Assembly (NCBI GenBank): GCA_036338595.1
Contig: JAYZBV010000057.1
Span: forward strand, 1-58,750
Length of the DNA: 58,750 bases
Direction of reading: 5' to 3'
Source of the DNA: Planctomycetota bacterium
Lineage (GTDB): Bacteria; Planctomycetota; UBA8108; UBA1146
Shown here in pieces: positions 10,083-58,300 of this stretch. The notes beneath the pieces are model-generated. The model saw nothing but the letters and a program-made list of their open reading frames with translations. It ran no database searches and was not told where the DNA came from. Position 1 is the first letter of the stretch; the number at the start of each line of letters is the position of its first letter. A program made the translations under genes and the position numbers.

Positions 10083-10271
10083 TCGTGACGAAGAGGCCAG
10101 TCTCGGCCTGGAAGTGACATTTGTGGGCAGATCATCCACCTGTCTCGGGTATAGTAAAGAATGCTGCCCGGTTTTCAGGTTCTTTCCTGATGATTGTTCA
10201 TGGTAGTTGCGTATGACCGAGGAGGAGCCTTGAAAGAGGAAACAGGCGCCAGTACAGAGCCTTTTCCAGGG

Positions 10272-12755: not shown

Positions 12756-13031
12756 GTAGCTCAGTCCCACCTCTGAAGTGATTTCGCCCTGGCGAATGTT
12801 AGTTTTACTTCCGAACGATACATCGTTTCTCTCGGCCTCGTTTCCGTTGCCATCGTTGCAAGTGTCCACTTGATGGAACTCGATTTCCTCGATCTACTGC
12901 CGGGGCATCGGGGGCTCCATGGCGGGCTTCCGCATCCGTTTGCGCCCACGGACCAGGGATCCGACCGTAGTTCCACTGGATTGAGAGACAAATCCAAACT
13001 GCCTATCAACCTGGGAAGGTGTACCTGGCCC

Positions 13032-15339: not shown

Positions 15340-16323
15340 TCAGCAGGCGTTGTAAAGAGCGCAGAAGAGCGTGTCGATGTTGGTTTCATCCCAACCGCAG
15401 GAACCTGGCGTGGGAGGAGCGGGCATCGTGCCTCCGCTGAACAATGCAGCGAGGGTGAAGATCGCATCGGCAATATTGATGCTCCCATCATCGTTTGAAT
15501 CGCATGCATCGCCGCAACTACCTGAAACTCCACCGCCAAAGAGCGAATCCAGTGAAAAGATGGCATCTGCGATGTTGAAAGAGCCATCGGTGTTGCAATC
15601 CCCGCGCTGGAATTCTGGTCCCAGAGGATCCGCCAGGGGGAACACTTCATCGAATGAGACAACAGCACCCGTTGTGGATGTGAAGATGGTAGTGACACCA
15701 AGGTCTCCACCCGCCGGCGAGTGTCGATAAATCGGCTCGGTGGTCCAGATCAGCGGGACATCGAAATCCAGAATTCCAGTGAGCGGCAGGCTGCCCGCAT
15801 CCGTGACACTCATGGTGCCGCCCGTGTCATCCGGAAGGTCAGCGAAGAGTACATCAAATGCTATCTGACCTGTCGGGTTGGGGAATCCCAGCAGGGCGAG
15901 ACCCGCCGCAACATTTCCGGTGATCTCCGTGACCATTGCAACAGCCTCCATCGTGTCGGAGCTGACAGCACTGATCTGAACCTCGGCGATGATCTGTCCG
16001 GCGACGATGACGACAGGAGTTTGAATGAAGATGTCGAAGACAGCACCGCCGACCTGCTGACCGGGAACGAAGCCGACGAAATCAAAGGAGCCTCGATCGA
16101 ACTGAACCACGAGGCTCGAGGGGCCTTCACTGCCCTCGGGAAAGAGCACATCCTGACTGAACCCACTTGCGAAGCCGCCCTGCAGGTTATCGAAGGAAGT
16201 GGTCACCGATGGGTCGAACTGTGCAGAACAGGGGGTGGCTATCGCCAGTGTTGCGAGCAGCAACCCATGGCACAGGATCGTTGAGACTGATCGAGAATGT
16301 TCGATACTCACCTCCCCATGCAC
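15340..16323 (-). CDS. Secreted protein: unknown ~200 aa domain + dockerin-like module (paralog of 16330-17301)
   Basis: Signal peptide ..PCSAQF; FQRGDCN..DSNDDG tail. Confidence 0.75.
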   Translation of the reverse strand: MHGEVSIEHSRSVSTILCHGLLLATLAIATPCSAQFDPSVTTSFDNLQGGFASGFSQDVLFPEGSEGPSSLVVQFDRGSFDFVGFVPGQQVGGAVFDIFIQTPVVIVAGQIIAEVQISAVSSDTMEAVAMVTEITGNVAAGLALLGFPNPTGQIAFDVLFADLPDDTGGTMSVTDAGSLPLTGILDFDVPLIWTTEPIYRHSPAGGDLGVTTIFTSTTGAVVSFDEVFPLADPLGPEFQRGDCNTDGSFNIADAIFSLDSLFGGGVSGSCGDACDSNDDGSINIADAIFTLAALFSGGTMPAPPTPGSCGWDETNIDTLFCALYNAC

Positions 16324-16329
16324 GATGTT

Positions 16330-17301
16330 TCAGGGACAGTTGTTGTTCAACTGGAGACAGGTCAGCAATCCCGGAGTTGGATCTTCGCCACACACACCAT
16401 GGGGCGCAGGAGGCGCAGCTCCGCTGCCGAAGAGTCCACTCAGGCAGAAGACCGCATCCGCAATGTCGACACTGTTGTCGTCATTGGCATCGCAGGCCAG
16501 TACGCAAGGAACCGAGCCGTTGCTGAACAAGAAGCCGAGCATGGTGATCGGATCGCTGATATCAAAACCACCATCTTGGTTGGCGTCGCCTCGATTGAAC
16601 TGATCCGGAGAAGCGCCCCCATTGAGCGGGAAGACCTCGTTGAAGGAGGCCTCGATGCCAGTCGTCGAGGTGAGTAGCGTTTCGACGACGAGATCTCCTC
16701 CCAAGGGGGAGTGAGTGAGAATGGGAGCAGTTGTCCAGGTCAGTGGAATGTCAAAATCGAGATTGCCACTCAGCGGCAGAGTCCCTGCATCGGTGACATT
16801 CATGGTGGCTCCGGTGTCTCCGGGAAGATCGGTATAGAGGACATTGAATGCGGTATCGCCGATGTTGAGATCAATCCCGAGCAGCGAAAGGCCTGACGAA
16901 ACATTTCCCGTGATGTCGGTGATGACTGCGATCGCCTGCATCGTATCGGGACCGACCGAGGTCACCTGAACATCCGCAATGATGTCCCCTGAGATGGTGA
17001 CGAAAATTACACTGACGAAGACCTCGACGACCAGACTTCCCACCAGTTGTCCTGGAGCATATCCGGAGAAATCAAAGGAGCCGCGGTCGAATTGAATCAG
17101 CATCGAAGAGGGTCCCTCTTGACCCTCGAAGAAGAATCCATCCTGGATGAACCCACTCGCTTGCCCCGAATCGAGATTGTCGATACTGGTCGACAGGGTC
17201 GGATTGAATTGCGCCTGGCAGGGAGTGGGGATGGCGAGGAACACCAGCAACCAGCATCCGCACAGCAATAAGAGCGATGATCGGGAGAACGGAACTGGCA
17301 C
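16330..17301 (-). CDS. Secreted protein: unknown ~200 aa domain + dockerin-like module (paralog of 15340-16323)
   Basis: Signal peptide ..PCQAQF; shares EGPSS..QFDRGSFDF and DAG.LPL.G.LDFD.PL.WTT with its neighbour; FNRGDAN tail. Confidence 0.75.
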   Translation of the reverse strand: MPVPFSRSSLLLLCGCWLLVFLAIPTPCQAQFNPTLSTSIDNLDSGQASGFIQDGFFFEGQEGPSSMLIQFDRGSFDFSGYAPGQLVGSLVVEVFVSVIFVTISGDIIADVQVTSVGPDTMQAIAVITDITGNVSSGLSLLGIDLNIGDTAFNVLYTDLPGDTGATMNVTDAGTLPLSGNLDFDIPLTWTTAPILTHSPLGGDLVVETLLTSTTGIEASFNEVFPLNGGASPDQFNRGDANQDGGFDISDPITMLGFLFSNGSVPCVLACDANDDNSVDIADAVFCLSGLFGSGAAPPAPHGVCGEDPTPGLLTCLQLNNNCP

Positions 17302-17413: not shown

Positions 17414-18892
17414 TCACGAGATCGCTTTCCAGATCGGTTGCGCACCTTCTACGCCGACCAGTTTCTGTTCGAGACCAGCATGGAAGTAGGTCAGGTTGTT
17501 CGGTTCCAGGCCCATCAGTTGGAGCACCGTTGCGTGTAGATTCTTGACGTGAAGTGGCTCCTCGACCGCTGCGGCACCCAGTTCGTCGGTGGTTCCGATG
17601 CTGGTTCCTCCTCGGATTCCCCCGCCTGCCATCCACATCGTGAATCCGTACGAGTTGTGATCGCGTCCCGTGCCCTCGGCGTACTCGGCGGTGGGTTGAC
17701 GACCGAACTCACCCCCCCAGATCACGAGAGTTTCATCGAGCAATCCTCTTCGCTTGAGATCCTTGAGAAGCCCTGCGATCGGTAGGTCAGTAGCTCCGGC
17801 GTGCTTGTCGTGATTGAACTTCAGATCCCCGTGGGCATCCCAGTTGTTGTCGTTGTGGTTTCCGCCCGAATAAATCTGTACGAAGCGAACCCCTCGCTCG
17901 ACCAATCTACGAGCCATCAGGCACTTTCGACCGAAGTCCTGGGTCTGGTCACGATCGATTCCGTAGAGGGATTTTGTCTCCTCATCTTCGGCATTGATGT
18001 CGACCGCCTCGGGAGCCGTGCTTTGCATCTGGTAGGCCAGTTCGTAACTGGCGATGCGTGCGGCAAGATCGGGGTTTCCGACCCTTGCTGCGGCATGGGC
18101 TTCGTTTTCGCCACGCAGGTGATCGAGCACGGATCTCTGGATCCCACCCCCCAGGAACTCGGGCGGTTCCAGGTCGAGAATCGGTGGCCCCTGCGAACGG
18201 AGAACGGTGCCCTGGTACTGTGCGGGCATGTAGCCACTCGACCAGTTCTTTGCTCCTGAGATCGGGCCACCGGTATTGTCGAGCATGACGACAAATCCGG
18301 GCAGATTCTCGTTGAGGGTTCCCAGGCCGTAGTTTGCCCACGATCCCAGACAAGGGGCACCGCTCAACAGCTTTCCGGAGTTCATCATCAACATTGCGGA
18401 GCCATGGAGTGGCGAATCTGCAGTCATCGAGTGAAGAAAGGTGATGTCGTCAACCATCGATCCGACATTGGGGAACAGATCGCTGACATGCTTTCCGCAT
18501 TCGCCGTATTGTTTGAAGTTCCACTTGGGGCCAACTACACGGCCCTTCTTTCGATGACCCCCGCGGCCAAATGTCGTGACCTCGATGTCCTGACCGTCTA
18601 GCGGGTAGAGCTTCGGTTTATAATCAAAGGTATCGACGTGACTGGGTCCACCGTACATGAACAGGAAGATCACCGACTTTGCCCTCGCAGGAATCATCGA
18701 AATCTTCGGAGCCATCGGATTCACGAATTCCGTGGCTCCGTCTGCAGCGAGACCTTGACTGGAGAAGAAACTGTTGCCGAGCATGCCGCTCAGTGCCAGG
18801 GAGGTGAATCCAGCCCCAGCTTCCCACAGGAACTCCCTGCGAGTTCTACCGCAGAAGTCTCTTCCTTTTTCGGAACCCTTGCGATCTTTCAC
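17414..18892 (-). CDS. DUF1501 domain protein (Tat-exported)
   Basis: TRREFL Tat motif; AKSVIFLFMYGGPSHVDTFDYKP; ARRLVERGVRFVQ; WGGEFGR.P; GRDHN. Confidence 0.92.
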   Translation of the reverse strand: MKDRKGSEKGRDFCGRTRREFLWEAGAGFTSLALSGMLGNSFFSSQGLAADGATEFVNPMAPKISMIPARAKSVIFLFMYGGPSHVDTFDYKPKLYPLDGQDIEVTTFGRGGHRKKGRVVGPKWNFKQYGECGKHVSDLFPNVGSMVDDITFLHSMTADSPLHGSAMLMMNSGKLLSGAPCLGSWANYGLGTLNENLPGFVVMLDNTGGPISGAKNWSSGYMPAQYQGTVLRSQGPPILDLEPPEFLGGGIQRSVLDHLRGENEAHAAARVGNPDLAARIASYELAYQMQSTAPEAVDINAEDEETKSLYGIDRDQTQDFGRKCLMARRLVERGVRFVQIYSGGNHNDNNWDAHGDLKFNHDKHAGATDLPIAGLLKDLKRRGLLDETLVIWGGEFGRQPTAEYAEGTGRDHNSYGFTMWMAGGGIRGGTSIGTTDELGAAAVEEPLHVKNLHATVLQLMGLEPNNLTYFHAGLEQKLVGVEGAQPIWKAIS

Positions 18893-18904
18893 GGCATTGC
18901 TCCA

Positions 18905-21649
18905 TCAATCGATGTGGATGAACTCGTTCAGATTAAATGTCATCACGCAGAAGACATCGAGAGCCTGTTTTTCATCGAGATCGTACTTGGATCGAAGTTC
19001 CAAGATGAATGCGACATTGTCTCGAATCCGCTCTTCAGTGGGTTTGTGCTGCGTGATGAGGAAAAGGGCCCTGTTGACCTGGGCAGGTAATGATTCGGTC
19101 TCGTTGCGGAGTTGTTGGGCAAAGATCCTCGCCTGATTTCCGGTCAAGTCACTGTTGAGCATCGTCAACGCCTGAGTCGGTTGGACCGTGTTGAAGCGTA
19201 CCGGGCAAGATGAATCGGTATCGGCCATGTCAAAGGCCAGCAGCATCGGATGGAGCAGCGATCTCTTGACGTGAATGTAAAGGCTTCGTCGAGCTGAGTC
19301 CTCGGCACTGGAGCGGCCCCATGCGGCACCGGGACGCGACGAGGTCGCGAGCACCTCGGCGGGCATCGGAGGGTAAACTCCCGGTCCTCCGAGGGTGCGG
19401 TTGAGATTTCCGCTGACGGCCAGTACCGAATCACGCAGTTCCTCGGCCGACAGCCGCCGTCCTCGAAAACGCCACATGTACAGGTTCTCGGGATCTTTCT
19501 GATCCGCAACAGCATCGTAGCGGGAGGACATCTTGAACACGGATGAGGTGACCAGCCGGCGAATCAGTCCCTTGATGCTCCAGCGTTGATCGAGCAGTTC
19601 GAGAGCGACCTGATCGAGCAGTGCCGCATCCTTGGGCGGAAGTCCCAGTTCTCCAAAATCATTGGGAGTCGGAACGATCGGCGCACCGAATAGATGTTGC
19701 CAGATCCGATTGGAGATCACCCGAGCAGTGCGAGGATTCTCTGGATCGGTGATCCAGCGAGCCAATGCGAGCCGACGACCAGATGAGTCTCCGTCTCGTG
19801 GCGATGTGATCAACGCATCGCCACCGCCGAGGATCTCCGGGAAACCGGGCTGGACCTCAGCACCGGGACTGGATGCAGTGCCCCGGATTCGGATGTGGCT
19901 GGTGGGCGGATCTCTCCGTTCCTGCGCCGAGAGAACCTGGACCATCTGGCGATCGGGCCGCTTCAACTGACCGATCCGTTCGATGGCCAGTGCGAGTCGA
20001 TCGCCTTCCGCTTCCCCGAGCCGTTCTGAGACCAGTTGGCGGTGTGCCGGAAGGGCACCCCCGCCGATGTTCAGATCGATCACCTCGAAACCATCGAGAA
20101 CCCGGTTCCAGATGCGAACCTCGTCGAGGTTGCCCTGCAGGGTGTGACGGTCGGGGAACATACGGCCGATGCTCAGACGCTCCGGTGCATCGAGTGCCTG
20201 CTTGCCGCCGGTAGCGGAAGCGACCTGGGCTCCGTCGACCCACAGAACGACATGACCGCTTTCGCGTTCTCTGGTGAAAACGACATGGTGCCACTGACCA
20301 TCGGCCATGCCCCCGGGGCCATGAATGAAGGTCTCCGGCTGGCCCACTCCGGCGCAGACATGCTGGCCGACCAGCGAGATGCCGTAATCGGCGACCACTC
20401 CGCCAATCTCACCGTCGACGAGTCCGGTGCCCCGGAACCAGCGCAGGTCATCGTTGCCTCCGGCTCCTTCATGCTCGGTGCGAAACCACAGGGAGATGGA
20501 GAAATCATCCTGGACCGGTCGGTCGATGAGGATCCGATCATTCTGGTCCAGTTGAAGAGCCTTCCCCCGATAACCCTCGCCACGTTCTGTTTCTCGATCT
20601 TCGGCGATGGATGGGTTCTGCTGTTCGAAGTCGAGATGCAAGACCTGCCCTTGCCAGAGATCTGATCGTGCTACCTCGAGCACCTCTGCACCCCAGCGTT
20701 CTCGGATCTCCTCGTTGAGATGACGAACCTCGGCCAGTCGTTCCGTTCTTTCGCGGCGCCAATCCTCGAGGGAGCGCCCGAAATCATCAGAGCCGAGATC
20801 CATCGGCAACTTGCGGACGAAGTTACCGGTATTGATGCCATTTCCTCCACCGCTCTTGTAGGGCTTCAGGCCCTCGAAGAAGGACAGCATCCGGTAGTAG
20901 TCTCGTGCCGGGATCGGATCGCCCTTGTGATCATGGCAGCGGGCACATCCCATGCTGATGCCAAGCATTGTACGACAGGTGGTATCGAGCATGCCGTCGA
21001 GATCGTCAAACACCGCCTGTAACGGATCAGCCGGTTCGTCATCGCGGATTCCCAGATGAAGGAAGCCGGTCGCCACGTGATGATCGAGACTCTCCTCGTC
21101 CAGTTCGTCTCCAGCGAGTTGCATCGTCAGGAAGCGGTCGTAGGGCATATCGGAGTTGAAGGCTTCCACCACCCAGTCTCTATAGCGCCAGGCCCCCGGC
21201 TTGAGTCGATCCCGTTCATAGCTGTCGGTCTCGGCCCAGCGAACCAGATCGAGCCAGTGACGACCCCAGTGAACACCGAACTGAGGGCTGGCGAGCAACT
21301 GATCGACTCGAGTTTGCCAGCGGTCTGGAGCGGGGTCGGCGAGGTAGCTCTCCACCTGTTCGGGAGTGGGAGGGAGTCCCGTGATGACATAGTGCAATCT
21401 TCTCAGCAGGGTAACTGGTTCGGCCTCGGCTGCGGGTTCGATGCCCAGTTGTTCGAGACGGCTGAGCCAGAAGTGATCGATGTTGCTGTGGGCACGATTC
21501 TTCAGCGCCGCCAGTTCGGGGATCTGGCTCGAGGTGAGGGGGAGATCACACCAGCGGCGGCTTTCGGAATCGTTGTCTCCTCCTGCGGAACCGGAAGAGG
21601 AGAAGATCAGCAACAAGCTGACGAGCAGTCCTGGAACGATCATCCGCAT
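18905..21649 (-). CDS. DUF1549/DUF1553 (PSCyt2/PSD1) planctomycete cytochrome-like protein with LamG-like insert
   Basis: LLRRL...TGLPPT, WGRHWLDLVR, CARCHDHK (CxxCH), GRRLALARWI...NPRTARV; WHHVVFT..LWVDG..GNLDEVRIW LamG; GGAGG RBS before ATG 21649. Confidence 0.9.
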   Translation of the reverse strand: MRMIVPGLLVSLLLIFSSSGSAGGDNDSESRRWCDLPLTSSQIPELAALKNRAHSNIDHFWLSRLEQLGIEPAAEAEPVTLLRRLHYVITGLPPTPEQVESYLADPAPDRWQTRVDQLLASPQFGVHWGRHWLDLVRWAETDSYERDRLKPGAWRYRDWVVEAFNSDMPYDRFLTMQLAGDELDEESLDHHVATGFLHLGIRDDEPADPLQAVFDDLDGMLDTTCRTMLGISMGCARCHDHKGDPIPARDYYRMLSFFEGLKPYKSGGGNGINTGNFVRKLPMDLGSDDFGRSLEDWRRERTERLAEVRHLNEEIRERWGAEVLEVARSDLWQGQVLHLDFEQQNPSIAEDRETERGEGYRGKALQLDQNDRILIDRPVQDDFSISLWFRTEHEGAGGNDDLRWFRGTGLVDGEIGGVVADYGISLVGQHVCAGVGQPETFIHGPGGMADGQWHHVVFTRERESGHVVLWVDGAQVASATGGKQALDAPERLSIGRMFPDRHTLQGNLDEVRIWNRVLDGFEVIDLNIGGGALPAHRQLVSERLGEAEGDRLALAIERIGQLKRPDRQMVQVLSAQERRDPPTSHIRIRGTASSPGAEVQPGFPEILGGGDALITSPRDGDSSGRRLALARWITDPENPRTARVISNRIWQHLFGAPIVPTPNDFGELGLPPKDAALLDQVALELLDQRWSIKGLIRRLVTSSVFKMSSRYDAVADQKDPENLYMWRFRGRRLSAEELRDSVLAVSGNLNRTLGGPGVYPPMPAEVLATSSRPGAAWGRSSAEDSARRSLYIHVKRSLLHPMLLAFDMADTDSSCPVRFNTVQPTQALTMLNSDLTGNQARIFAQQLRNETESLPAQVNRALFLITQHKPTEERIRDNVAFILELRSKYDLDEKQALDVFCVMTFNLNEFIHID

Positions 21650-21751
21650 TATTGTGCGTTCCCTCCCATGAGCCTTGTGAAGCGGCGATGTCGTGCCGAC
21701 CCTCACGATTCCAGGGTACCACGCGATATCGACTCGTAGGAGCGGGGGCCT

Positions 21752-23545: not shown

Positions 23546-23831
23546 CGGGTCGCCTCCGGGTCTTCTCTGATGCTGCCTGGTGTGTTCAGTTCACGGGTAT
23601 CCGCACTGAAGGAGCAAGATTGTCCTGTATGGCGGGAACGATGGGAAGAGACCGGATCTGGTGCGTTGTTGTGGAGTTGACTCTTGCATGGATGAAAGGG
23701 AGAATTGCGATGTGAACCGCGCTGCCACACTTGAAGTTGTGGCATGGAAGCTGAAATTCAGGACGCTCGATGGGCTGATCTCCATCCCGAAGTGATCCTG
23801 ATGCGTGCGAAATTTCGCTTACAGGAGTTTC

Positions 23832-26741
23832 ATGAGATCAGGTGCATTGCTACTTCTACTGCCGCTCGTGGTCGTGATGGCTGGAGCGACTCCGGTCGCT
23901 GCCCAGGTCGGTAACCTGATCGTCGAGCCGTACCTGCAATCGCCCGCTCCGACCTCGATGGTGGTGGGGTGGGAGACTGCGGCGGGCAATGGCAGCGAGG
24001 TGGAGTATGGTCTCGATGCTTCTCTGGGACAGTCCGCAACGGGAAGCAGCATCGCCAGCGGTGGCGGCGCCTTCATCCACCATGTGCAGTTGACCGCACT
24101 CAGCCCAGATACGCGTTACTACTACAGGGTGATCACCGGCACTACCGTCAGCGCTACTCATTTCTTCAGGACGCCGCCTCCCTTGACCGAGGAACTTCCG
24201 TTTCACTTCATCGCCTATTCCGATTGCCAGTACGGCAGTAACGGCGTCAAGCATCAGGAAGTGATCAATGAGGGTGTGATCCCCTTCTGTTCCCAGCAGT
24301 TCGGAGTCCCCATCGATGAGAGCCTTTCCTTCTCGCTGGTGCCTGGCGATCTTGTCTCGACAGGATCGAATCACTCTCACTGGCAGGACCATTTCTTTTC
24401 CCAGGCAAAACTTCTCTATAGACATGTTCCGCTGATTCCTGCACTGGGAAATCATGAGGCAGACGCCCAGTATTATTTCGATTACCTGCAATTACCCACC
24501 AACGGCACGCCAGGTTACGAGGAGCACTGGCATTACCACGACCACCAGAATGTCAGGGTCATCACCCTCGATACCAATCCCGCCTACCGGATTCAGGCGC
24601 AGATCGACTGGCTGGCGCTGGTTCTCGAAGATGCGGTGCAAGATGATTCCATCGACTTCGTCTTTGCCCAGTTTCATCACCCTCACAAGTCGGAAATCTG
24701 GACACCGGGTGAGACCACCTTCAGCACCCAGGTGGTCAGCATGGTCGAGCAGTTCAGCACAGTGACCGGCAAGCCATCGATCCACTTCTTCGGCCACACT
24801 CACGGGTATTCCCGAGGGCAGAGTCGAGATCACCAGCACACGATGGTCAATGTGGCCAGCGCCATGGGGTCGCTTGACTACTGGGGCCTCTATCCCAACG
24901 CCGATTACGAGGAGTTCGAGTTCAGCGTTCCGGAGTGGGGATTCGTGCTGATGGATGTGGAGGCGGGGGCCGACCCGTCCTTCCGATTGCGCCGGGTCAG
25001 CCGCGGTAACGATTACATCTTTCGCAACAATGAGGTCATCGATGACATCACCGTGCGTCGCTACAACCTGGCCCCTGAAACTCCGGTGGCACTCTTTCCC
25101 GGACCGACTTCAGGGACGGTCCTGGGAGATGATGTGACTCTGACCGCCAGTACCTACCTCGACGCAGATGGCGATGCCCACATCGAGAGTCAGTGGCAGG
25201 TGACGACGATCTCGGGAGATTACAGCGATCCGGTGGTGGACGAGTGGCGACGCTTTCAGAACTGGTACCGGACACCGGCGGTCGATCCAGGCATCAGCAT
25301 CGACACCGTGACTGATCCCGACATGACTCATGTTTGCCTGGAAACACCCCTTCCCGGCTGCGTCACCGTCTACTGGCGAGTTCGTTACCGGGATCGCAGT
25401 CTCGGCTGGAGTGAATGGTCGCTGGAGGAGTCGTTTCAGGTCGGCAACTCCAGTGCCGGAGCCACCGCTCCGGTGCCACCCGACGCTGCCACCCATGTTT
25501 CCTATTCACCGCTATTGCAGTGGTTCCCCTGTGACCCGGGCGACTCCTACGATGTGTACCTGGGCAGCAGCCCAACCCTGGGTGCCGGCGACTTCCAGGG
25601 CAATCAACTGACGACCACTTTCGATCCCGGTCTCCTCGATGAGATGACCGTCTACTTCTGGCGCATCGATTCGCATCTCGGCACCCAGGTGACCGAGGGT
25701 CCGACGTGGAGTTTCACCACCGATCTGAGTTATCCGACCCGGTTCACCGCCGAATGGAGATTCGATGATGCGTTGCCCGACGATGACCAGGCGCTGGTGG
25801 CGCAACTGGGCACATCGGTGATGACGCCACGAGGGATGTTTCACGATGTGGAGTGGGGAACCGGAATCAGCGATGGCACCGAGGTACCCCACATCGATCA
25901 GCAACCGGTGGACTACCTCTGGCTCGACAACGTCTTCGGATCGGGGCGAGGTCTCGAGACCTTCTTCAACGCACCCGGCAATGGTGGGGGAGGTTGCTGT
26001 GACGCCTATCACTTCACGCTGATCTTCGATGTGTTTCTCGATAGCAGCCAGACCCAGTTGCAGGCTCTCTGGCAGGGCAACGCTTCCAATAGCAATGATG
26101 CGGAGTTGTTTCTCCGATGTAGCGATGGAGCCTTCTATAACTCGGGAAATGGATATGTCGGTGCGGGCTCCTGGAACCTCGGAGAGTGGGTTCGCATCGC
26201 CCATCGCGTCGACTACCAGAACAACACCTCGGCGCTGTTCGTCAACGGTGTCAAGGTACTGGGAGATGATGTACTGGCCGCCCCCGACTGGCTCTACTCG
26301 CAAGGAAGCGGCCTGCCCGTCTGGATGCTGAGCGACAACGGGCCCGATTCCGATGTGTCACTGGTGCGCTGCGCCAACCTCGCCATCGTCGATGCGCGGA
26401 TGGGAGACGAGGCGATCGCGGCACTTGGTGGTCCCGATGCTGCGGGCATCTTTGTCGATGATCCGATCGAGCAGTTTGTCCGCGGCGATGCCAATGGCGA
26501 CGGTTCCCTCGATATCTCGGATCCGGTCGGGATGCTCACCTATATGTTCGGAGGAGGAGTCAGCAGCTGTCTCGATTCCATCGACGCCAACGATGACGGA
26601 TCGATCGACATCTCCGATCCGGTCTACCTGCTCGGGTTCCTCTTCAGCGGCGGCAATCCGCCTACGGCTCCCTTCCCCGTCTGTGGACCAGACCCCACAA
26701 CGGACGGGCTGGACTGCATCGGCCTGAGCGGTTGCCCCTGA
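23832..26741 (+). CDS. Secreted metallophosphoesterase (PAP-type FN3 + calcineurin-like), further FN3 and LamG-like domains, dockerin-like tail
   Basis: Signal peptide; EPYLQ; SDCQ, GDLV, GNHE, HHPH, GHTH; YWRVRY and YFWRID FN3 ends; FVRGDAN..DANDDG tail. Start 23805 or 23832. Confidence 0.85.
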   Translation: MRSGALLLLLPLVVVMAGATPVAAQVGNLIVEPYLQSPAPTSMVVGWETAAGNGSEVEYGLDASLGQSATGSSIASGGGAFIHHVQLTALSPDTRYYYRVITGTTVSATHFFRTPPPLTEELPFHFIAYSDCQYGSNGVKHQEVINEGVIPFCSQQFGVPIDESLSFSLVPGDLVSTGSNHSHWQDHFFSQAKLLYRHVPLIPALGNHEADAQYYFDYLQLPTNGTPGYEEHWHYHDHQNVRVITLDTNPAYRIQAQIDWLALVLEDAVQDDSIDFVFAQFHHPHKSEIWTPGETTFSTQVVSMVEQFSTVTGKPSIHFFGHTHGYSRGQSRDHQHTMVNVASAMGSLDYWGLYPNADYEEFEFSVPEWGFVLMDVEAGADPSFRLRRVSRGNDYIFRNNEVIDDITVRRYNLAPETPVALFPGPTSGTVLGDDVTLTASTYLDADGDAHIESQWQVTTISGDYSDPVVDEWRRFQNWYRTPAVDPGISIDTVTDPDMTHVCLETPLPGCVTVYWRVRYRDRSLGWSEWSLEESFQVGNSSAGATAPVPPDAATHVSYSPLLQWFPCDPGDSYDVYLGSSPTLGAGDFQGNQLTTTFDPGLLDEMTVYFWRIDSHLGTQVTEGPTWSFTTDLSYPTRFTAEWRFDDALPDDDQALVAQLGTSVMTPRGMFHDVEWGTGISDGTEVPHIDQQPVDYLWLDNVFGSGRGLETFFNAPGNGGGGCCDAYHFTLIFDVFLDSSQTQLQALWQGNASNSNDAELFLRCSDGAFYNSGNGYVGAGSWNLGEWVRIAHRVDYQNNTSALFVNGVKVLGDDVLAAPDWLYSQGSGLPVWMLSDNGPDSDVSLVRCANLAIVDARMGDEAIAALGGPDAAGIFVDDPIEQFVRGDANGDGSLDISDPVGMLTYMFGGGVSSCLDSIDANDDGSIDISDPVYLLGFLFSGGNPPTAPFPVCGPDPTTDGLDCIGLSGCP

Positions 26742-27662: not shown

Positions 27663-28940
27663 ATGGAAATCGACACACTGATGCTACGGAGGTTGCTGAT
27701 GAAGTCCAAAAAGCATCTGGTCTGGGTCGCGGGAGTGCTGGCGCTGATCGCAGCCTGGACCAGCGGCTCGCTACTGCTACTCCATGCCGAGAAAGATGCC
27801 GACCTTGGACTGCTGGCAGCGATCTGCTCCGCAACCGAGGACGGCTGCGCCTCGGTGGTCAACAGTCGCTGGGGAGTGTTGCCTCCGGGGGATAAGGGGT
27901 CTGATGGACCCCACGATGGTTTTCCGGTCGCAGCACTGGGTTTTCTCTACTATGCGCTTCTGGCGAGCTGGTACCTGCTGATCGGTATTCCCGACCCGGG
28001 GCGAATGTGGTTGTCTCGGATGGTGCTCTACCTCAACGCCCTCGGTGTCGTGGGGTCGATCATCTACACCGCACTCATCTTCTTTGCCATCGGAACGGCC
28101 TGTTTTCTGTGCCTTCTCACGCACGCCTGCAATATCGGGATTTTCATCGTCTCGTGGTTATTGAGGCCGAGGCAAAAAGAGCCCCGTGGTGGCGGATCGC
28201 CTTCGAATCGGTTGCTGGCGGCGAGTGCAGCGACGCTGCTGCTGGCATGCGTGGCCCAGTGGGGGGTCTTCGAGGCTGGCCAGGAGCGCGCCCGGTTCCA
28301 GTCACTGGAAGAGGAAGTTCTCGAACTGAGGGTATTCGCCAGCGATGTTGAAAAAGTGGAGACGGTGCACCGGATCCAGAAAAAGAACGACATCGAAGTT
28401 CGAAGCGATGATCCCACCATCGATGCTGTGGGTGGGTTGCACTACGGACTGGTGATCTTTTCCGATGTGGAGTGTCCCAATTGCGCGCGCTTCGATGAAT
28501 ATCTCAAGCAGACGATTCTTCCCATCTGGAGCGGCCATCTGAAGGTGATCTGGAAGCACTACCCCAACACCTCCGAGCATCCGAATTCGATGCAGGGAGC
28601 CAGAGCACTCGAAGCTGCGCGATTACAGGGCAAGTTCTGGCAGTTGAGGGACTGGCTGCTGCCGCGGCGCGAATCGCTGGGGGTCGTCAACTGGAGCCAG
28701 GCGGCCACCGAACTGGCGATGGATCCCGATCGATTCCTGAAGGATATGCAAAGTGCCCAGGTCACGAGGAGAATCGGGCAGGATATTTCTCTGGCTCGCA
28801 AGTTAGGGGTCAAGGGCACGCCTGGCGTCTACCTCAATGGGCGCCTGGTGAGCCGACTGATGCGACGCAGTGCCGGGTTCTGGGAGCTCCAGAGCGACAG
28901 TTTGAGGGAGATCCGCGACAGTCGAGGCCAGGATTGGTGA
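27663..28940 (+). CDS. VKOR (vitamin K epoxide reductase-like) - DsbA/thioredoxin fusion
   Basis: C(SATEDG)C..V..S.W loop, TM helices, CFLC redox motif; C-terminal FSDVECPNC, WKHYP, GVKGTP. Start may be 27681 or 27699. Confidence 0.85.
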   Translation: MEIDTLMLRRLLMKSKKHLVWVAGVLALIAAWTSGSLLLLHAEKDADLGLLAAICSATEDGCASVVNSRWGVLPPGDKGSDGPHDGFPVAALGFLYYALLASWYLLIGIPDPGRMWLSRMVLYLNALGVVGSIIYTALIFFAIGTACFLCLLTHACNIGIFIVSWLLRPRQKEPRGGGSPSNRLLAASAATLLLACVAQWGVFEAGQERARFQSLEEEVLELRVFASDVEKVETVHRIQKKNDIEVRSDDPTIDAVGGLHYGLVIFSDVECPNCARFDEYLKQTILPIWSGHLKVIWKHYPNTSEHPNSMQGARALEAARLQGKFWQLRDWLLPRRESLGVVNWSQAATELAMDPDRFLKDMQSAQVTRRIGQDISLARKLGVKGTPGVYLNGRLVSRLMRRSAGFWELQSDSLREIRDSRGQDW

Positions 28941-29216: not shown

Positions 29217-30587
29217 ATGCGTATTTGTAATTATTTTCTGCTCGTGATGTTGGCCCTGTTTCTGTCGGGGTCGATGGCGTCCGGTCAGACCTTTGAGATC
29301 TCGTCTCCGGATCAGACTCATGCAGCGGGAGCCGGTGCGATTCCCTTCACGGCGACCTTCAGTATCGAACAGGTCACGGGAGCGCTCGAGGATACAAAGG
29401 GATTCTCATTCGCCTACCGTCACGATGATTCGTTGATGGAAGTTCTTGGAGCCAATCCATACGTGCCCGCAGCAGTAGGGGAACTCGCTGCAGTGAATGC
29501 CAATGATGGCCCTGATTTCATCCAGGGAGAGGTGTTTGTAGACGGATTCACCATCGGAGTGATCTACGCATTTGTCGATCAGTCGCAAGTGATCACCTTC
29601 GAGGTTCCCAAGCCGATGATCGAGGTGGAATACGCAACCCTCCCCGGCGCCCTCTCCGGGGCCAGTGGTGATGTGGTTTCCAACATCATCCCAGCGTCGG
29701 ACCTGGGAGTCCCGCCGACCTCGACCGTCGTGGTCATCGGAGCAGGAACTTCAGCTGCCACGACCGCATATCCATTTTCCATCACATTTCTGGCAGCGCC
29801 TCCGCTCACCTTTGTCGTCGAGTGCGCCGATCAGTCCGCCAACTTCAATGCTGCATCGGGAGAAGGTAATTTCACCGGCAGCATCCTGATCGATCAAGAT
29901 GTGACCCCCGGCGATACCGCTGCCGAAACCCAGGGATTTTCGTTCGGGATCGGCCATGATTCAGCTGTGCTCAGCGCCATCGGAGTGGACTACGGTTCAG
30001 CACTGGGCGGTCTCGAGGGCGGCCAGGGACCGGAGTACTTCCAGGTCGGGATCTACAGCGATGGAATCACCGTCGGTTGTATCTACGATTTCCAGGGTGC
30101 CTCGACCTATGCCTTCGGTTCTCCCACCGAGGCGACAACGGTCGACTACGAGACTCAATCAGGCGCTCTGGCTGGATCGACACCGGGCTCATCCGTGGTC
30201 ACAACTCTGACTCCGACGGAGGGTCTGGGTCCCAGTGGAGTCACGTTGGTGATGGTGGTCGATGGACAGTCGGTGATCATGTCGGGGCAGTCTGGTTCCG
30301 TCACCTTGACGGCAACAGGTGGATTTGACCGCGGCGATTGCAATGACGACGGCGGCTTCAACATCGGAGATCCCATCACTCTGCTGGATGCTCTGTTCCT
30401 CGGAGGCAGTGTCAATTGCGATAATGCCTGTGACGCGAATGACGATGAGAACAAGGACATCGCAGATGGCGTCTACATGCTCTCGGCGCTCTTCATCAAC
30501 GGCCCGATGCCTCCCGGCACGGGAACATGCGTTCCGGATCCGACGCCGGGCACTCTCGCCTGCTTGGTTTTCAATTCCTGTTCCTAG
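29217..30587 (+). CDS. Secreted adaptor-like protein: two cohesin-like domains + dockerin-like module
   Basis: Signal peptide; two repeats T.GFSF...HD..L.......G.L....GP.[FY]......DG.T.G.IY; FDRGDCN tail. Confidence 0.7.
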   Translation: MRICNYFLLVMLALFLSGSMASGQTFEISSPDQTHAAGAGAIPFTATFSIEQVTGALEDTKGFSFAYRHDDSLMEVLGANPYVPAAVGELAAVNANDGPDFIQGEVFVDGFTIGVIYAFVDQSQVITFEVPKPMIEVEYATLPGALSGASGDVVSNIIPASDLGVPPTSTVVVIGAGTSAATTAYPFSITFLAAPPLTFVVECADQSANFNAASGEGNFTGSILIDQDVTPGDTAAETQGFSFGIGHDSAVLSAIGVDYGSALGGLEGGQGPEYFQVGIYSDGITVGCIYDFQGASTYAFGSPTEATTVDYETQSGALAGSTPGSSVVTTLTPTEGLGPSGVTLVMVVDGQSVIMSGQSGSVTLTATGGFDRGDCNDDGGFNIGDPITLLDALFLGGSVNCDNACDANDDENKDIADGVYMLSALFINGPMPPGTGTCVPDPTPGTLACLVFNSCS

Positions 30588-30637
30588 ATGGGTGCCACTG
30601 GGCTGACAAGCCGATGACCCAACGATGACCAGGCCTG

Positions 30638-30676
30638 GGGCTGTGAATCGCGACCGATTCACAGCCCTTTTCTTTC
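30638..30676 (+). terminator. Rho-independent terminator
   Basis: GGGCTGTGAATCG-cgac-CGATTCACAGCCC, a perfect 13-bp stem, followed by TTTTCTTT. Confidence 0.85.
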
Positions 30677-30989
30677 GCTTCGACCGGGATGCCGATCCGA
30701 CTACCGAGGTGCGCCGCGAATTCCGGCATCCGTTCCCGAATTTGCCGATGGCAGCAGTTCCCGGGTCCCCAGTCGAATAAGACCCTCGTTGCGGTCTGAG
30801 CCCTCTGTGGCTAACATCGGAGAAGTAGGGTGGGTGCCATCGTCAGCCGATCTGAGCAGACCTCAGCACCCTCTCGACGGGCTTTTTCTGATATTTCCGA
30901 GATGGTCCTCTCGAGTTCCTGTGCATCTGCATCAGGGCGATGGGATCAGGTCTGACCTGCTGTTGCAGGTCCGTGGGGAAGGGACACCA

Positions 30990-33900
30990 ATGCGAGCAGT
31001 CTTCGCAGTGGCAGTTCTCTGGATACAGTTCGCCGTTGTCGGCACAGCCTTCAGCCAGTCCATCACGGATGGAGTGGTCGAAAGTCGGACTCCCATCGAT
31101 GGCAAGATCCACATGGTCGCGGGGGTAGGAGGAGCCGCTCTTCCACTTCCCGAGGGCGTGAAGCCGGACCTGGGTGACCCATTTCAGGCATTGCGATATC
31201 ACGGTGAATCCTTCGGCATTCGTTTTCCGGAACGCGAACTGGCGATCACCAGGACCGAGCGTTGCTCGCTGGGGATGATTCATCACACATTCGAGCAGGT
31301 TCATCTGGGTGTGAAGGTGTTTTCTGGTGTGATCAAGGTTCACCTGTCTCCCGATGGTACTCCTCGCTCGATCAATGGAGACTTTTACAGGCTGCCCAAG
31401 AAACTATCAGTGACACCATCCGTGTCGCTGGATGAGGCGCTGATCCTTGCTGAAGCCCATCTCGATCAGCAGCTACTGGTTCAAACTGCCGATGCCGAAC
31501 TGGCCATCGTGAACCCGGGATGGTGGGGGGATCCGTTTCTCCCTGCGCCGGTTCTTGCCCATCACCTTGTCGTCGAGGGATCAGAGATGCTCGCAGAGCA
31601 TGTGCTGATCGATGCCGCCAGTGGCGATCTCCTCGACCACTGGCCGGCAGTGCACAGCGCTCGCTTTCGCGAGGTCTACGACGGTAGTGGCGGTGGACTT
31701 CCTGGAAGCCTTGCCCGATCGGAAGGCTCGGCCGCCAGTGGCGATACCGATATCGATGAGGCGTACGACACTGCTGGAGATTTCTACCGGTTACTGTTCG
31801 ACGGTCTCGGGCGCGATTCTCTTGATGGCAGTGGTAGCACATTGACCGCCACCGTGCACTGGAATGACCCCATCTGCCCCAATGCCATCTGGAATGGGAA
31901 TCAGATTGCGTTGTGCAACGGACTCGCCACTGACGATGTGATCGCTCATGAGTTCGCCCATGGCCTCACACAGTTCACTGCCAACCTGATCTATCAGAAT
32001 CAGCCCGGGCAATTGAACGAGTCGTACTCCGATATCCTTGGAGAAACGATAGATCTGTGGAATGGCAATACATCCGTTGTCGGCACACCTGGAGGAACCC
32101 CCTGGCCCGGCGGCACCACTGGTGGAGGACAGGATACTCCCAACTCCGCGCGAACCGGCTGCAATGATGGATCGACACGCTGGCGCATGGGAGAGCAGAC
32201 CAGTCTCAACGCCATCCGCGACCTGTGGTTTCCCGAGTGTTTCAACGATCCCCCCAGTACCACCGATCCGCTCTACAACCAGAACGCCTGTGGACCCTTC
32301 GATAACGGTGGTGTCCACATCGGTAGTGGAGTTTTCAATCACTCCTACAGCATGCTCGTGGATGGCAAGACCTATAACGGGCAGACCGTGTCGCCGATCG
32401 GCTTGACCAAGGCGGCCGCGGTGTATTTCCGTGCCCTGACGGTATACATGACCTCGGGCACCGCCTTTCCGCAGGCAGAGACCTTCATCAATCAGGCTGC
32501 GGCAGACCTGCTCAACTCGAGTCCAAACGATCCACGTACAGGCAGTCCCGGTGACGTCTTCACGCAGAGCGATGCGGACCAGGTGGCCGCCGCCATGATC
32601 GCCGTTGGAATGTCAGAACTGGTTTGTGGTCAGGCTCCTCCCGGACCTCCGCCCTCCAATGATGACTGTGCGGGATCAGTTCTGGTATTCGTTGGGCTCA
32701 ACGACATCAACAGCAACAACGCCACGACGGGTGGACCTCCTGGCGATTCAGGACAGTGCAGCGGAACTTTTCTGGGCGATGTCGGCAACGACATCTGGTA
32801 CTCGTACGTACCGCCAGAAGATGGACTTCTCTCCGTCAGTACCTGTGATATCGCCAGCTGGGATACGGATCTTCTCGTCTACGAGGGAGACTGCGGATCC
32901 CTGCTGCAGATCGCCTGTAACGGCGATACCGGTGGTTGCGGAAACTTCACATCGGTCATCAATGACATTCCCGTGAGTGGCGGATTGACCTACCAGATCA
33001 GGGTTGCTTCCTGGAGTGAAGGCACCACCGGGTCGGGTCAGATGGATGTGGCCTTCGTCGGAGGCGGCGGTGGAGCAGTGGAGAACTGCACCAACGGTGT
33101 CGATGATGATGGGGACGGTCTGATCGATTGTGCGGACCCGGAGTGCGCCGCCGACCCGAACTGTATTCCGGCGCCGCCAGGAGACGAGTGTGAGGCAGCC
33201 TCGGTAGCAGTGTTTGGTTCGAATCCTGTCGATACCACTACTGCCACGCAAAGCGCAGATCCGTTCGATTCAGATACTTGCCCGGGAACTTTCATGGGAC
33301 AGATGACCAGCGACATCTGGTTCAGTTACACTCCCGTCGAGAATGGCGATTACACCATCAGTACCTGCGACAGCATCGACTTCGATTCTGACATTGTCGT
33401 CTATTCGGGCAATTGTGATTCGTTGACCCAGGTCGCCTGTAATGGCGATGCGGCCGGCTGTGGTGGTTTTACCAGTCTGGTCGAGATGACGATGACCGCA
33501 GGCACGGGATACTACATCCGGCTCGGAGGCTGGAATGATACGGCATCGGGCACGGGCACGCTCGATATCGGTGCCACCACTCCTCCACCTCCTCCCGAGA
33601 ACTGCTCCAACGGCACCGATGATGATCTCGACGGTCTCACGGACTGCGAGGATCCGGACTGTATCGGTGATCCGGCTTGCGTCTGTGAACCGATTTCGGG
33701 ACTCGGGTGTAGCCAGGGTGCTGGCACCGAGGTCGTACTCTCGTGGGTCAATGGTGAGTCCTACACCCTGATCTCCCTGTATCGAGATGGAGTCGTGATC
33801 GATTCGCTGCCGGGAACCGCAACGGGATATGTCGACAGTTCTACATTTCCTGGCACCTATTCCTATGCCGTGGTTCCTTTCTGCGATGCCACTCAGCAGG

Positions 33901-35225
33901 CAGCCGGAGTGATTTGTGCCGTGAATGTGGAACTCAATGGCGGGTTCAGTCTCGTGGCTTCCGATGTTGCCGGAGGATATAGCGGATCAGGAGCAGAGTT
34001 CGAGACGATGATCTCGGCGACCGAGTTCACTGATAACCCCGGATTCCCGACCAGTACCGCGGGCTTCTCGTTTGGTCTCGGTCATGATCCCGATCTGTTC
34101 GCAGCCATCGGCGCTGCCCCGGCGGGTGCGGTAGCTGCCCTCGACGGAGGTGCTGGACCGCAGTTCTTCGAAGCGTCCAGTTTCCCCAACGGCATCACCG
34201 TCGGATGCGTCTACAGCTTCACCTTCGCAGAAACGATCCAGATGATCACCGAGACATCGCTTTCGACGATCAACTACGAGTCCTTGCCGGGCGTATTTTC
34301 CAGTACAACCGGCACCGTGACGAGTGCGCTGGATTTCACAGAAACACTCGGCAATCCGGTGGTGCAGTCGATCATCTCCACCGATGCGGGAGTAGCGATC
34401 GGTGTGATTCCCACGGGAGCGGTCGTGACCCTCACTCCTACCGGGTTCATCCTCACTGCAGTGGATCAGACGGTGGCATTCCCGCCATCGACCGGAGCCG
34501 CCACCGTCATGGCTTCCTTCACGCTGGAGGAGGATGCGACCAATGCGGGCTATCCAAACGACACTCAGGGTTTCTCGTTCGGCGTTTCGCACGATCCGGC
34601 GGTACTGACAGTGACAGGCGGTGTCGGTGCACAGGTCATCGATGACCTCAACAACGGCACCGGTGCTGACTTCCTCGATGTGGGACTGTTCACAGATGGA
34701 TTCACCTGTGGCTGCGTTTACAGTTTCCTGGGTATCCAGACGATTCAGTTCGCTTCTCCCATCGAACTGGCCATCGCCAGTTACGACACGGTTCCAGGTG
34801 CTCTGATCGGATCGACTTCAGACGTGAACACGATCCTGTCCATCTCGAACAGCCTGGGTAGTCCCCCCGTGGAGATTGTCGTGGTGGTGAACTCTCAGGC
34901 TCTTGGTGCTACGGGGGTCGCTGGACTCATCACACTCACACCGGTTGTGGGTGGATTTGTGCGTGCGGATGTCAACGACGACGCACTCGTCAATCTGGCC
35001 GATGCCATCACGGTGCTGGATGCGCTGTTCCTCGGTGGAGTGATCAATTGCATGGATGCTGCCGATACCAATGACGATGAACTGACCAACATTGCAGATG
35101 GCGTATTCCTGCTCACTTACCTCTTCTCGGGCGGATCCGCTCCTCCTGCGCCTTTTGGTGGCGGTTGCGGTGCAGATCCGGCCGGTACAGCACTGGATTG
35201 TGCCGAGTACCTGTCATGTAACTGA
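30990..35225 (+). CDS. Secreted M4 (thermolysin-like) metallopeptidase with accessory repeats, two cohesin-like domains and a dockerin-like tail
   Basis: Signal peptide; FTP/PepSY-like propeptide; NAIWNG, DVIAHEFAHG, GQLNESYSD, GGVHIGSG; 2x NC.NG.DDD.DGL.DC.DP.C; 2x GFSFG..HDP repeats; FVRADVN tail. Confidence 0.88.
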   Translation: MRAVFAVAVLWIQFAVVGTAFSQSITDGVVESRTPIDGKIHMVAGVGGAALPLPEGVKPDLGDPFQALRYHGESFGIRFPERELAITRTERCSLGMIHHTFEQVHLGVKVFSGVIKVHLSPDGTPRSINGDFYRLPKKLSVTPSVSLDEALILAEAHLDQQLLVQTADAELAIVNPGWWGDPFLPAPVLAHHLVVEGSEMLAEHVLIDAASGDLLDHWPAVHSARFREVYDGSGGGLPGSLARSEGSAASGDTDIDEAYDTAGDFYRLLFDGLGRDSLDGSGSTLTATVHWNDPICPNAIWNGNQIALCNGLATDDVIAHEFAHGLTQFTANLIYQNQPGQLNESYSDILGETIDLWNGNTSVVGTPGGTPWPGGTTGGGQDTPNSARTGCNDGSTRWRMGEQTSLNAIRDLWFPECFNDPPSTTDPLYNQNACGPFDNGGVHIGSGVFNHSYSMLVDGKTYNGQTVSPIGLTKAAAVYFRALTVYMTSGTAFPQAETFINQAAADLLNSSPNDPRTGSPGDVFTQSDADQVAAAMIAVGMSELVCGQAPPGPPPSNDDCAGSVLVFVGLNDINSNNATTGGPPGDSGQCSGTFLGDVGNDIWYSYVPPEDGLLSVSTCDIASWDTDLLVYEGDCGSLLQIACNGDTGGCGNFTSVINDIPVSGGLTYQIRVASWSEGTTGSGQMDVAFVGGGGGAVENCTNGVDDDGDGLIDCADPECAADPNCIPAPPGDECEAASVAVFGSNPVDTTTATQSADPFDSDTCPGTFMGQMTSDIWFSYTPVENGDYTISTCDSIDFDSDIVVYSGNCDSLTQVACNGDAAGCGGFTSLVEMTMTAGTGYYIRLGGWNDTASGTGTLDIGATTPPPPPENCSNGTDDDLDGLTDCEDPDCIGDPACVCEPISGLGCSQGAGTEVVLSWVNGESYTLISLYRDGVVIDSLPGTATGYVDSSTFPGTYSYAVVPFCDATQQAAGVICAVNVELNGGFSLVASDVAGGYSGSGAEFETMISATEFTDNPGFPTSTAGFSFGLGHDPDLFAAIGAAPAGAVAALDGGAGPQFFEASSFPNGITVGCVYSFTFAETIQMITETSLSTINYESLPGVFSSTTGTVTSALDFTETLGNPVVQSIISTDAGVAIGVIPTGAVVTLTPTGFILTAVDQTVAFPPSTGAATVMASFTLEEDATNAGYPNDTQGFSFGVSHDPAVLTVTGGVGAQVIDDLNNGTGADFLDVGLFTDGFTCGCVYSFLGIQTIQFASPIELAIASYDTVPGALIGSTSDVNTILSISNSLGSPPVEIVVVVNSQALGATGVAGLITLTPVVGGFVRADVNDDALVNLADAITVLDALFLGGVINCMDAADTNDDELTNIADGVFLLTYLFSGGSAPPAPFGGGCGADPAGTALDCAEYLSCN

Positions 35226-52221: not shown

Positions 52222-52414
52222 CACAACCTCCAACGAAGAGACGAACCCAGGCACGCAGTAAAAACTGACAGGCCGAATTCGATTGAAATAGGCAGACCTC
52301 CAACAACTCCCATCCTAAGGCTCACTCCGGAGACTCGCAACGCGGGGAAGTCCGAATCTCGCGGGGATCGTTGGGGACAAGAGAGAGATCCTTGGCTTGT
52401 AAATGTACAGACAG

Positions 52415-58138: not shown

Positions 58139-58300
58139 AGCGACTCGCAGCCCTCGGGGGTGCACGAAGTGGACCAATAGACTCGTTTGCAAATAGCGCC
58201 TGCAAAAGAAGATAACCACACCGCAAGCGTGACGCGAATGTCAGGATAGTTCCAGGACAGGAAAGACAGGAAAGACAGGTGAAACCAGAATGGTCATCCT

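Follow-up and report, generated by a model that had tools for sequence, protein, structure and literature searches.

Paired cohesins and a dockerin on an adaptor-like protein and on a thermolysin-like protease of a marine planctomycete

Introduction

Cohesin-dockerin assembly is textbook biology of the Gram-positive cellulose degraders, where the modules of cellulosomal scaffoldins are separated by flexible linkers. Within these systems the adaptor scaffoldins, such as those of Acetivibrio cellulolyticus (PDB 3l8q) and Ruminococcus flavefaciens (ScaC; 5lxv, 4uyp), are exported, enzyme-free proteins that combine cohesins with one dockerin. Here we consider a comparable arrangement in a 58,750-nucleotide stretch of contig JAYZBV010000057.1 (the window), which comes from an uncultured marine planctomycete with a 2.9-Mb, 88% complete assembly (GCA_036338595.1). 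Two plus-strand genes in the window, A (29217-30587) and B (30990-35225), share a cohesin-cohesin-dockerin cassette, and on balance we regard it as probable that each of their products is a bivalent unit in the scaffold of a cohesin-dockerin network, non-cellulosomal and located at the cell surface, whose every binding step is predicted from folds, domain order, protease motifs, signal peptides, synteny and repertoire.

The repertoire of R. flavefaciens is similar in scale to the one described below, which has some 140 dockerins and cohesins in the tens. ScaA of Acetivibrio cellulolyticus has a GH9 module inside the scaffoldin together with seven cohesins, and Clostridium thermocellum uses SLH domains to attach OlpA and OlpC to its Gram-positive wall. 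The non-cellulosomal cohesins and dockerins known so far are generally found as single or few modules per genome. For planctomycetes, the 'planctosome' hypothesis, put forward for the freshwater Nemodlikiaceae, brings cohesin and dockerin together with zinc peptidases and P-domains and proposes a role in polypeptide degradation (Andrei et al. 2019, ISME J, PMC6461901). As outlined there, the model contains one LTD-anchored cohesin protein and one Doc-HYR-Coh adaptor (Doc, dockerin; Coh, cohesin; PMC6461901).

The cohesin domains of genes A and B

Gene A (29217..30587, +) encodes an exported protein of 456 residues that is made up of a Sec-type signal peptide (residues 1-23, MRICNYFLLVMLALFLSGSMASG; 29217..29285, +), two cohesins (A1, residues 23-195, 29283..29801, +; A2, residues 197-367, 29805..30317, +) and a dockerin tail (30324..30584, +). 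An AlphaFold2 model, based on an alignment of 86 homologues, has a predicted local distance difference test score (pLDDT) of 92.4 and a predicted template modelling score (pTM) of 0.67, a value that leaves the packing between the domains unsettled. The model consists of a signal helix (residues 3-19), the two domains and the tail (residues 370-456) only, in keeping with the original prediction that the protein holds nothing but a domain pair and a dockerin. Across 400 aa the cassette of A is collinear with the C-terminal part of B and 37% identical to it (E 8e-69); in B the two further domains B1 (33945..34445, +) and B2 (34452..34949, +) precede a second tail (34956..35222, +). Four homologous domains between about 29290 and 34945, with a dockerin directly after each pair, were the substance of that earlier, unaided look at the DNA, and its observations are correct in every particular: the T-x-GFSF-x3-HD element and the remaining motif residues that it listed lie within 22 invariant columns of the four-domain alignment, and the gap from each pair to its tail is 1-6 residues. 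The four domains are each of about 170 aa and are pairwise 27-38% identical, the value being 32% for A1 against A2 (E 2e-17, BLASTP) and 38% for B2 against A2; both B1, which is collinear with A1, and B2 are found by the family hidden Markov model (HMM).

The cohesin likeness, at first recognised by eye, is now backed by fold comparison and by profile matches. The structural comparison that had been suggested as a check leads to cohesins both in Foldseek, where the best match to the model of A is the type II cohesin dyad 3l8q (E 4e-12), and on re-alignment with VIA-align, where cohesin structures occupy 50 of the 50 best entries. A2 lies nearest to type I cohesins (6kgc_A, 4uyp_A; Z 16.5, root-mean-square deviation (rmsd) 2.2-2.5, 140-141 of 144 residues aligned), and A1 nearest to type II/III cohesins (2y3n_A; Z 13.7, rmsd 2.9, 153 of 173 residues aligned). 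Both have the nine-stranded beta-sandwich of about 140-170 aa with cohesin topology. A generic immunoglobulin (Ig) or carbohydrate-binding-module sandwich was considered and rejected because cohesins fill all the best 50 VIA entries; the integrin and adhesin matches given by Foldseek drop out on re-alignment. As modelled, the window domains are thus true cohesin folds, with B1 and B2 assigned as cohesins through their homology to A1 and A2.

Profiles give the same picture. A profile of 24 cohesin-like sequences from this genome (A5), searched against the PDB, matches 3l8q_A (E 4.4e-7) and 5lxv_A (E 2e-5), and cohesins account for 19 of its 21 matches at E<=1. A full-length homologue that is 27% identical (P0039) passes both Pfam Cohesin (E 8e-8, 33 bits) and Dockerin_1 (E 1.7e-7). 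An NCBIfam scan of the isolated window domains and tails returned nothing useful. Several cohesins and one dockerin are present in A and a catalytic module is absent, and the modelled protein is built like a bivalent adaptor without an enzyme. In this it resembles the adaptor scaffoldins of cellulosomes, with which its cohesin folds match at Z 13-16.5. There are 46 homologues of A, and wherever they are named they are proteins of Planctomycetota metagenome-assembled genomes (MAGs).

The dockerin tails

The tails of A and B, which are 88-89 aa long and 52% identical to one another, each hold two D-x-N-D-D...D loops, and both calcium-binding loops are intact in A (DCNDDGGFNIGD and DANDDENKDIAD) and in B. 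In the model of A the tail has helices at residues 384-395 and 415-426. Loops and helices together make the tandem repeat of type I dockerins, with about 22 residues per repeat, a calcium loop of the form D-x-[ND]-x-D...D and a helix. The tail of B scores 103 bits with the tail HMM. Searched against the PDB, a profile of the tail family (A3) has dockerins as all of its 11 best matches (E 2.8e-6 to 0.012), and Pfam Dockerin_1 matches 55 tails of this genome at E<=0.01, 30 of which reach the curated cut-off; the dockerin call, made originally on the sequence of the two window tails, gains its backing from these PDB matches and from the Pfam matches to paralogous tails. What sets the tails apart from canonical dockerins is an extension of about 25 C-terminal residues with four near-invariant cysteines, and the last ~20 residues (C-G-x-D-P-T...C...C-P) are strongly conserved. 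Judged by sequence, the tail is a divergent type I dockerin with a four-cysteine C-terminal extension.

A protease with the same cassette

Gene B (30990..35225, +) encodes an exported protein of 1411 aa that has a signal peptide at its N-terminus and joins an M4 (thermolysin-like) zinc protease to the Coh-Coh-Doc cassette. A fungalysin/thermolysin propeptide motif (FTP) at residues 83-132 (31236..31385, +; PF07504, E 2.4e-10) is followed by the M4 catalytic and alpha-helical domains at residues 258-509 (31761..32516, +; PF01447, E 3.4e-9; PF02868, E 6.4e-23). The M4 identity given in the original prediction holds, as both Pfam domains are present and both zinc motifs are intact, HEFAH at residue 320 (31947) and NESYSD at residue 343 (32016). 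Further along there is an acidic double-disulfide repeat (residues 697-725; NF033662, E 1.7e-21) and a galactose-binding-like beta-sandwich (residues 732-852; PF23759, E 5.9e-10), together at 33078..33545 (+), and Pfam and NCBIfam find a second copy of each nearby. The presence of an enzyme, cohesins and a dockerin on one polypeptide is shared with ScaA, which differs in that its enzyme is a cellulase, where that of B belongs to the thermolysin family, and in the number of cohesins, B having two.

The genome-wide repertoire and a candidate anchor

The cassette is one arrangement among many in this genome. With the tail HMM, 145 tails are found in 143 open reading frames (ORFs) of the assembly, 11 of these ORFs being in the window; 136 of the tails end within 15 residues of the C-terminus of their ORF and nine are placed elsewhere. 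Cohesin-like domains, searched for with an iterated HMM, number 71 and are spread over 45 ORFs, 42 of which are also tailed. Their architectures include Coh2-Doc and Coh3-Doc, with many such genes in tandem arrays on contigs C15 and C19, and A, B and about 20 paralogues have two or three cohesin-like domains per tail, while many otherwise unrelated proteins terminate in exactly one cohesin-like domain and a tail. Thirteen proteins are of the form X-Coh-Doc, among them an M4 paralogue of B (contig C73) and an M12B peptidase (C98). Two proteins of contig C40 (L004 3041-4174, -, and 9125-10375, +) have a single cohesin-like domain between two dockerins (Doc-Coh-Doc), and one of them is the only match in the genome to pass the Pfam Cohesin cut-off. 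Individual folds of this kind have relatives outside cellulosomes, as A compares well with the cohesin of Archaeoglobus fulgidus (2xdh, Z 15.1) and with Clostridium perfringens glycosidase cohesins (2w1n, 2jh2 and 2vo8, Z 13.3-14.0); the difference from these non-cellulosomal cases is that here there are about 70 cohesins, about 140 dockerins and polyvalent adaptors.

In a FastTree tree of 137 tails, those from cohesin proteins cluster, with 21 label changes compared to 35.8 +/- 2.5 in 200 shuffles. A separate scaffoldin type of dockerin was considered from this clustering and put to no use, given that whole-gene duplication explains it equally well.

Neither A nor B shows a membrane anchor or an SLH or sortase anchor, and a search of the genome for an anchored cohesin-like protein, as had been proposed, yields one. 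Three cohesin ORFs are tail-less; two are cut by contig ends and the third, on contig C84, encodes a protein of 472 aa with a lipoprotein signal, three He_PIG Ig-like domains and a lone C-terminal cohesin-like domain. Its lipobox is invariant in 9/9 orthologues, and its C-terminal domain matches the window domains in hhalign at a probability of 99.4% (E 2.4e-21). This C84 lipoprotein is, from its sequence features, the candidate cell anchor. Like OlpA and OlpC (3ul4 and 4dh2), it would be a cell-bound protein with one cohesin, and it differs from them in having a lipobox and three He_PIG domains; A2 itself aligns with 4dh2_C at Z 16.3 and with 3ul4_A at Z 15.6 in VIA.

Other proteins of the assembly have related features. 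On contig C53 (32398-35022, -) a protein with a lipobox (…LIVVGLAGC) also contains Big_5, FG-GAP repeats, a cohesin-like domain and a dockerin tail, and is possibly another membrane-tethered node. In two paralogues, C88 12314-13522 and C24 1-1962, a signal peptide and a cohesin-like domain at the N-terminus precede a long Pfam-free region; both are cut by contig ends.

Conservation among relatives

The family comprises 899 representative clusters at E<=0.001 (among 1.84 billion), and the named homologues are from Planctomycetota or 'Planctomycetia' MAGs from marine water. The order phosphatase, amidohydrolase, VKOR-DsbA, A, zero to two extra cohesin genes, B is retained in 11/11 related loci, in all of which an A homologue, with identity down to 49%, is followed by a B homologue; in each of the 10 loci with enough flank, the gene immediately before the A homologue is a VKOR-DsbA homologue. 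This stretch is found in 18 DNA runs from seven marine or seawater studies. One locus (L020), recorded under a 'Bacillota bacterium' MAG, has purple acid phosphatase (PAP), amidohydrolase, VKOR-DsbA, A and B proteins that are 81-97% identical to those of the window; because of this identity the phylum label looks wrong, or the contig mis-binned.

Cohesin-like domains and tails are plentiful in every relative searched. Of the related genomes, 31/31 are matched by a narrow four-sequence cohesin profile (A1) and likewise by the tail profile, and the broader profile A5 matches 5/5 of the genomes in which it was searched. Tail copies number at least 60 in all 31 related genomes, throughout the class, and reach at least 150 (with candidates up to 593). 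A decoupling of cohesins from tails outside the order of the window was suggested by the narrow profile, which gives 1-14 cohesin-like matches per genome against abundant tails, and was dropped because the 24-sequence profile finds 25-53 matches in those genomes.

A surface network and its alternatives

How might these parts work together? After Sec export, the calcium-binding, disulfide-stapled tail of A or B would plug into a cohesin on a different protein. With two sockets added by every copy of A or B, one anchored socket could be amplified to two, four and more. These sockets would hold some of the ~140 dockerin-tailed exported proteins, of which the window supplies phosphoesterases, a P-domain protein, peptidases and proteins of unknown function as examples. 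The resulting tree would likely be rooted on the cell via the C84 lipoprotein, the domain of which is of the same clade as the four window cohesins. B would set a thermolysin-like protease inside the scaffold, an arrangement that fits the harvest of peptides and organic phosphate from seawater and not of polysaccharide. If the tails of A and B accept cohesins of their own kind the outcome would be an open-ended mesh, and if they accept only other kinds it would be a finite hierarchy; both stand.

Several observations weigh against A and B as scaffold units of such a network. At the level of the domains, Pfam Cohesin (PF00963) has no match to any of the four window domains, even at E<=10; Dockerin_1 (PF00404) leaves the tail of A unmatched and gives the tail of B an E of 2.5 and 8.8 bits (cut-off 22.9) over positions 2-55 of 57. 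The AlphaFold model of C84, from a nine-sequence alignment, has a pLDDT below 50 over residues 301-472, so that the call of a cohesin-like domain there comes from profile homology. At the level of the repertoire, receptor-only proteins are few, being C84 and the two contig-end ORFs, with a tail on 42 of the 45 cohesin ORFs. The modules are also nearly linkerless: the gap between cohesins is -5 to 10 residues in 26/26 pairs, and that between cohesin and tail is at most six residues in 36/42 proteins, which could mean one rigid structural unit with a contact in cis. To these may be added the sheer number and C-terminal placement of the tails.

This last point could also be explained in another way, namely that the tail is chiefly a C-terminal signal for export or surface retention, recognised by non-cohesin machinery much as the C-terminal domains of the type IX secretion system or PEP-CTERM are, with the cohesin folds serving as spacers or as ligand-binding sandwiches. 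The placement of 136 of 145 tails at C-termini, the occurrence of 143 tailed ORFs in a 2.9-Mb assembly, the minimum of 60 copies in every one of the 31 related genomes, and the strong conservation of the last ~20 residues with their four near-invariant cysteines would all be expected of a sorting tag. We nevertheless consider it unlikely, as nine tails are not C-terminal, including the N-proximal copies of the Doc-Coh-Doc proteins, and the tail is homologous to dockerins, for which cohesin binding is the sole known role. Cohesin folds have moreover co-expanded in the same genomes, and a conserved lipoprotein carries a single cohesin-like domain.

The short junctions raise a different possibility, in which the cohesin adjoining the tail stabilises its own dockerin, as the X-module of type II/III X-dockerins does, and the composite binds some other partner. 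A and B would then not be polyvalent scaffolds. The gap of 0-6 residues between last cohesin and tail in 36 of 42 proteins is in favour of such a cis unit, as are the many unrelated proteins that carry exactly one cohesin-like domain and a tail; the pTM of the A model leaves the inter-domain packing unsettled. It is, however, very unlikely given that all of the 50 best VIA entries are cohesins and not Ig-like X-modules, and that in A, B and about 20 paralogues there are two or three domains per tail, only one of which can adjoin it.

Within the network that we favour, a special case is that A and B insert their dockerins into cohesins of the clade to which their own belong and so build an open-ended branched mesh, which was the outcome foreseen in the original prediction. 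In a FastTree tree of the 71 domains, taken without regard to support values, the C84 domain falls in one clade with all four window cohesins. If the A and B tails bind the anchor, they may also accept the cohesins of A and B, since anchor and window cohesins share that clade, and the tail on 42 of 45 cohesin-bearing ORFs is likewise what self-assembly would call for. Yet A1 resembles type II cohesins more closely and A2 those of type I, a hint of two specificities, and known adaptor scaffoldins avoid self-binding through type divergence; we hold self-binding to be doubtful. The same low credence attaches to the fullest form of the idea, an open-ended self-assembling mesh in which more than 40 rigid, linker-less Coh-Doc proteins, rooted in a lipoprotein socket, would display the ~140 exported proteins, with proteases at the nodes and disulfides made by VKOR-DsbA. 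Of the original interpretation, then, the cohesin fold, the dockerin, the enzyme-free adaptor architecture of A and the union of a protease with a cohesin pair in B all stand, and the polymerising mesh is the part that remains improbable.

Cargo, neighbouring genes and transcription

Which proteins might such a scaffold carry? Among the 143 tailed ORFs, those scanned with Pfam for cargo were the tailed ORFs of the window, the contig-end one excepted, and the 13 X-Coh-Doc proteins. No glycoside hydrolase Pfam domain (E<=0.001) was found among the window's 11 tailed ORFs, and the carbohydrate-active dockerin cargo that goes with adaptor scaffoldins was not seen there. Besides A and B, the tail HMM identifies nine dockerin-tailed ORFs in the window, at 10194-12755, 12870-15287, 15340-16323, 16330-17301, 23805-26741, 48958-52254 (P_proprotein), 52487-55885, 56129-58219 and 58369-58749. 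They comprise two Metallophos/purple-acid-phosphatase-like phosphoesterases, the proprotein-convertase P-domain protein, a CarboxypepD_reg/Big_1 protein, two paralogues of about 325 aa and two large proteins, these last four being Pfam-negative, as well as one ORF that is cut by the contig end and lies outside the scan. Amid the dockerin-tailed genes there is also a DUF1501 and PSCyt2/PSD1 (with Laminin_G) gene pair at 17414-21706 (-), a combination typical of Planctomycetes.

Directly upstream of A is a fusion of VKOR with DsbA/thioredoxin (27663..28940, +; VKOR E 5e-17, Thioredoxin_4 E 1e-14), the product of which may oxidise the cysteine-rich dockerin tails. Between A and B there is a terminator-like hairpin (30637..30668, +) with a 14-bp stem, eight G-C pairs and a T-rich tail, and because of this strong hairpin after A the two genes are probably separate transcripts. 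A weak hint in the same direction is that RNA-library contigs from one sample stop at 30632-30639, where the hairpin starts. Contigs of this kind, likewise from a single sample, align to A and to parts of B with some 92-94% identity; because they derive from a related strain and DNA carry-over is possible, they only hint at expression, and no meaning attaches to the uncovered parts of B.

Comparison with described systems and significance

How, then, does the locus stand in relation to what has been described? The differences from the adaptor scaffoldins of cellulosomes are that (i) the host is a diderm marine planctomycete and not a Gram-positive anaerobe, (ii) no glycoside hydrolase domain was found in the 11 tailed ORFs of the window, (iii) linkers are nearly absent, the flexible linkers of adaptor scaffoldins being missing from all 26 cohesin pairs and from 36 of 42 cohesin-tail junctions, (iv) the dockerin has a four-cysteine extension, and (v) the candidate anchor is a lipoprotein.

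The planctosome, in the form outlined by its authors, is the closest published idea. It shares the link between cohesin/dockerin modules and zinc peptidases and P-domains, which is also found here in the M4 (B and C73) and M12B (C98) peptidases with cohesin and dockerin and in the P_proprotein ORF with a dockerin at 48958-52254. It has a different anchor and far fewer parts. In the present genome, at 88% completeness, the single LTD match (C54:10129-10470) belongs to an ORF that is dockerin-tailed and is outside the 45 cohesin ORFs, and the candidate anchor is a lipoprotein; Coh2-3-Doc units are present in tens of copies, and a protease itself has two cohesins. In the full-text literature, subscription journals and supplements aside, we found no description of another planctomycete cohesin-dockerin machine and no mention of Coh2-Doc adaptors, a protease-scaffoldin or a lipoprotein cohesin. 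The locus contributes the conserved VKOR-DsbA/A/B arrangement and the protease-scaffoldin, and the planctosome idea gains concrete parts in the form of a lipoprotein candidate anchor, bivalent adaptors and that same protease-scaffoldin.

The significance of the repertoire is that cohesin and dockerin are among the most abundant domains in an oceanic planctomycete with a small genome, and in its order, where they are found on proteases and phosphatases and not on cellulases. If the predicted binding is true, protein engineering would gain a large natural collection of cohesin-dockerin pairs that are orthogonal and stabilised by disulfides. It would also mean that free-living marine heterotrophs organise much of their secreted enzymes on the cell surface, which would bear on the ways in which organic nitrogen and phosphorus, both dissolved and particulate, are harvested while enzymes and products are kept from diffusing away. 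Were the self-assembling mesh to prove true as well, the principle of the cellulosome would have been turned into a surface organiser of the whole exoproteome.

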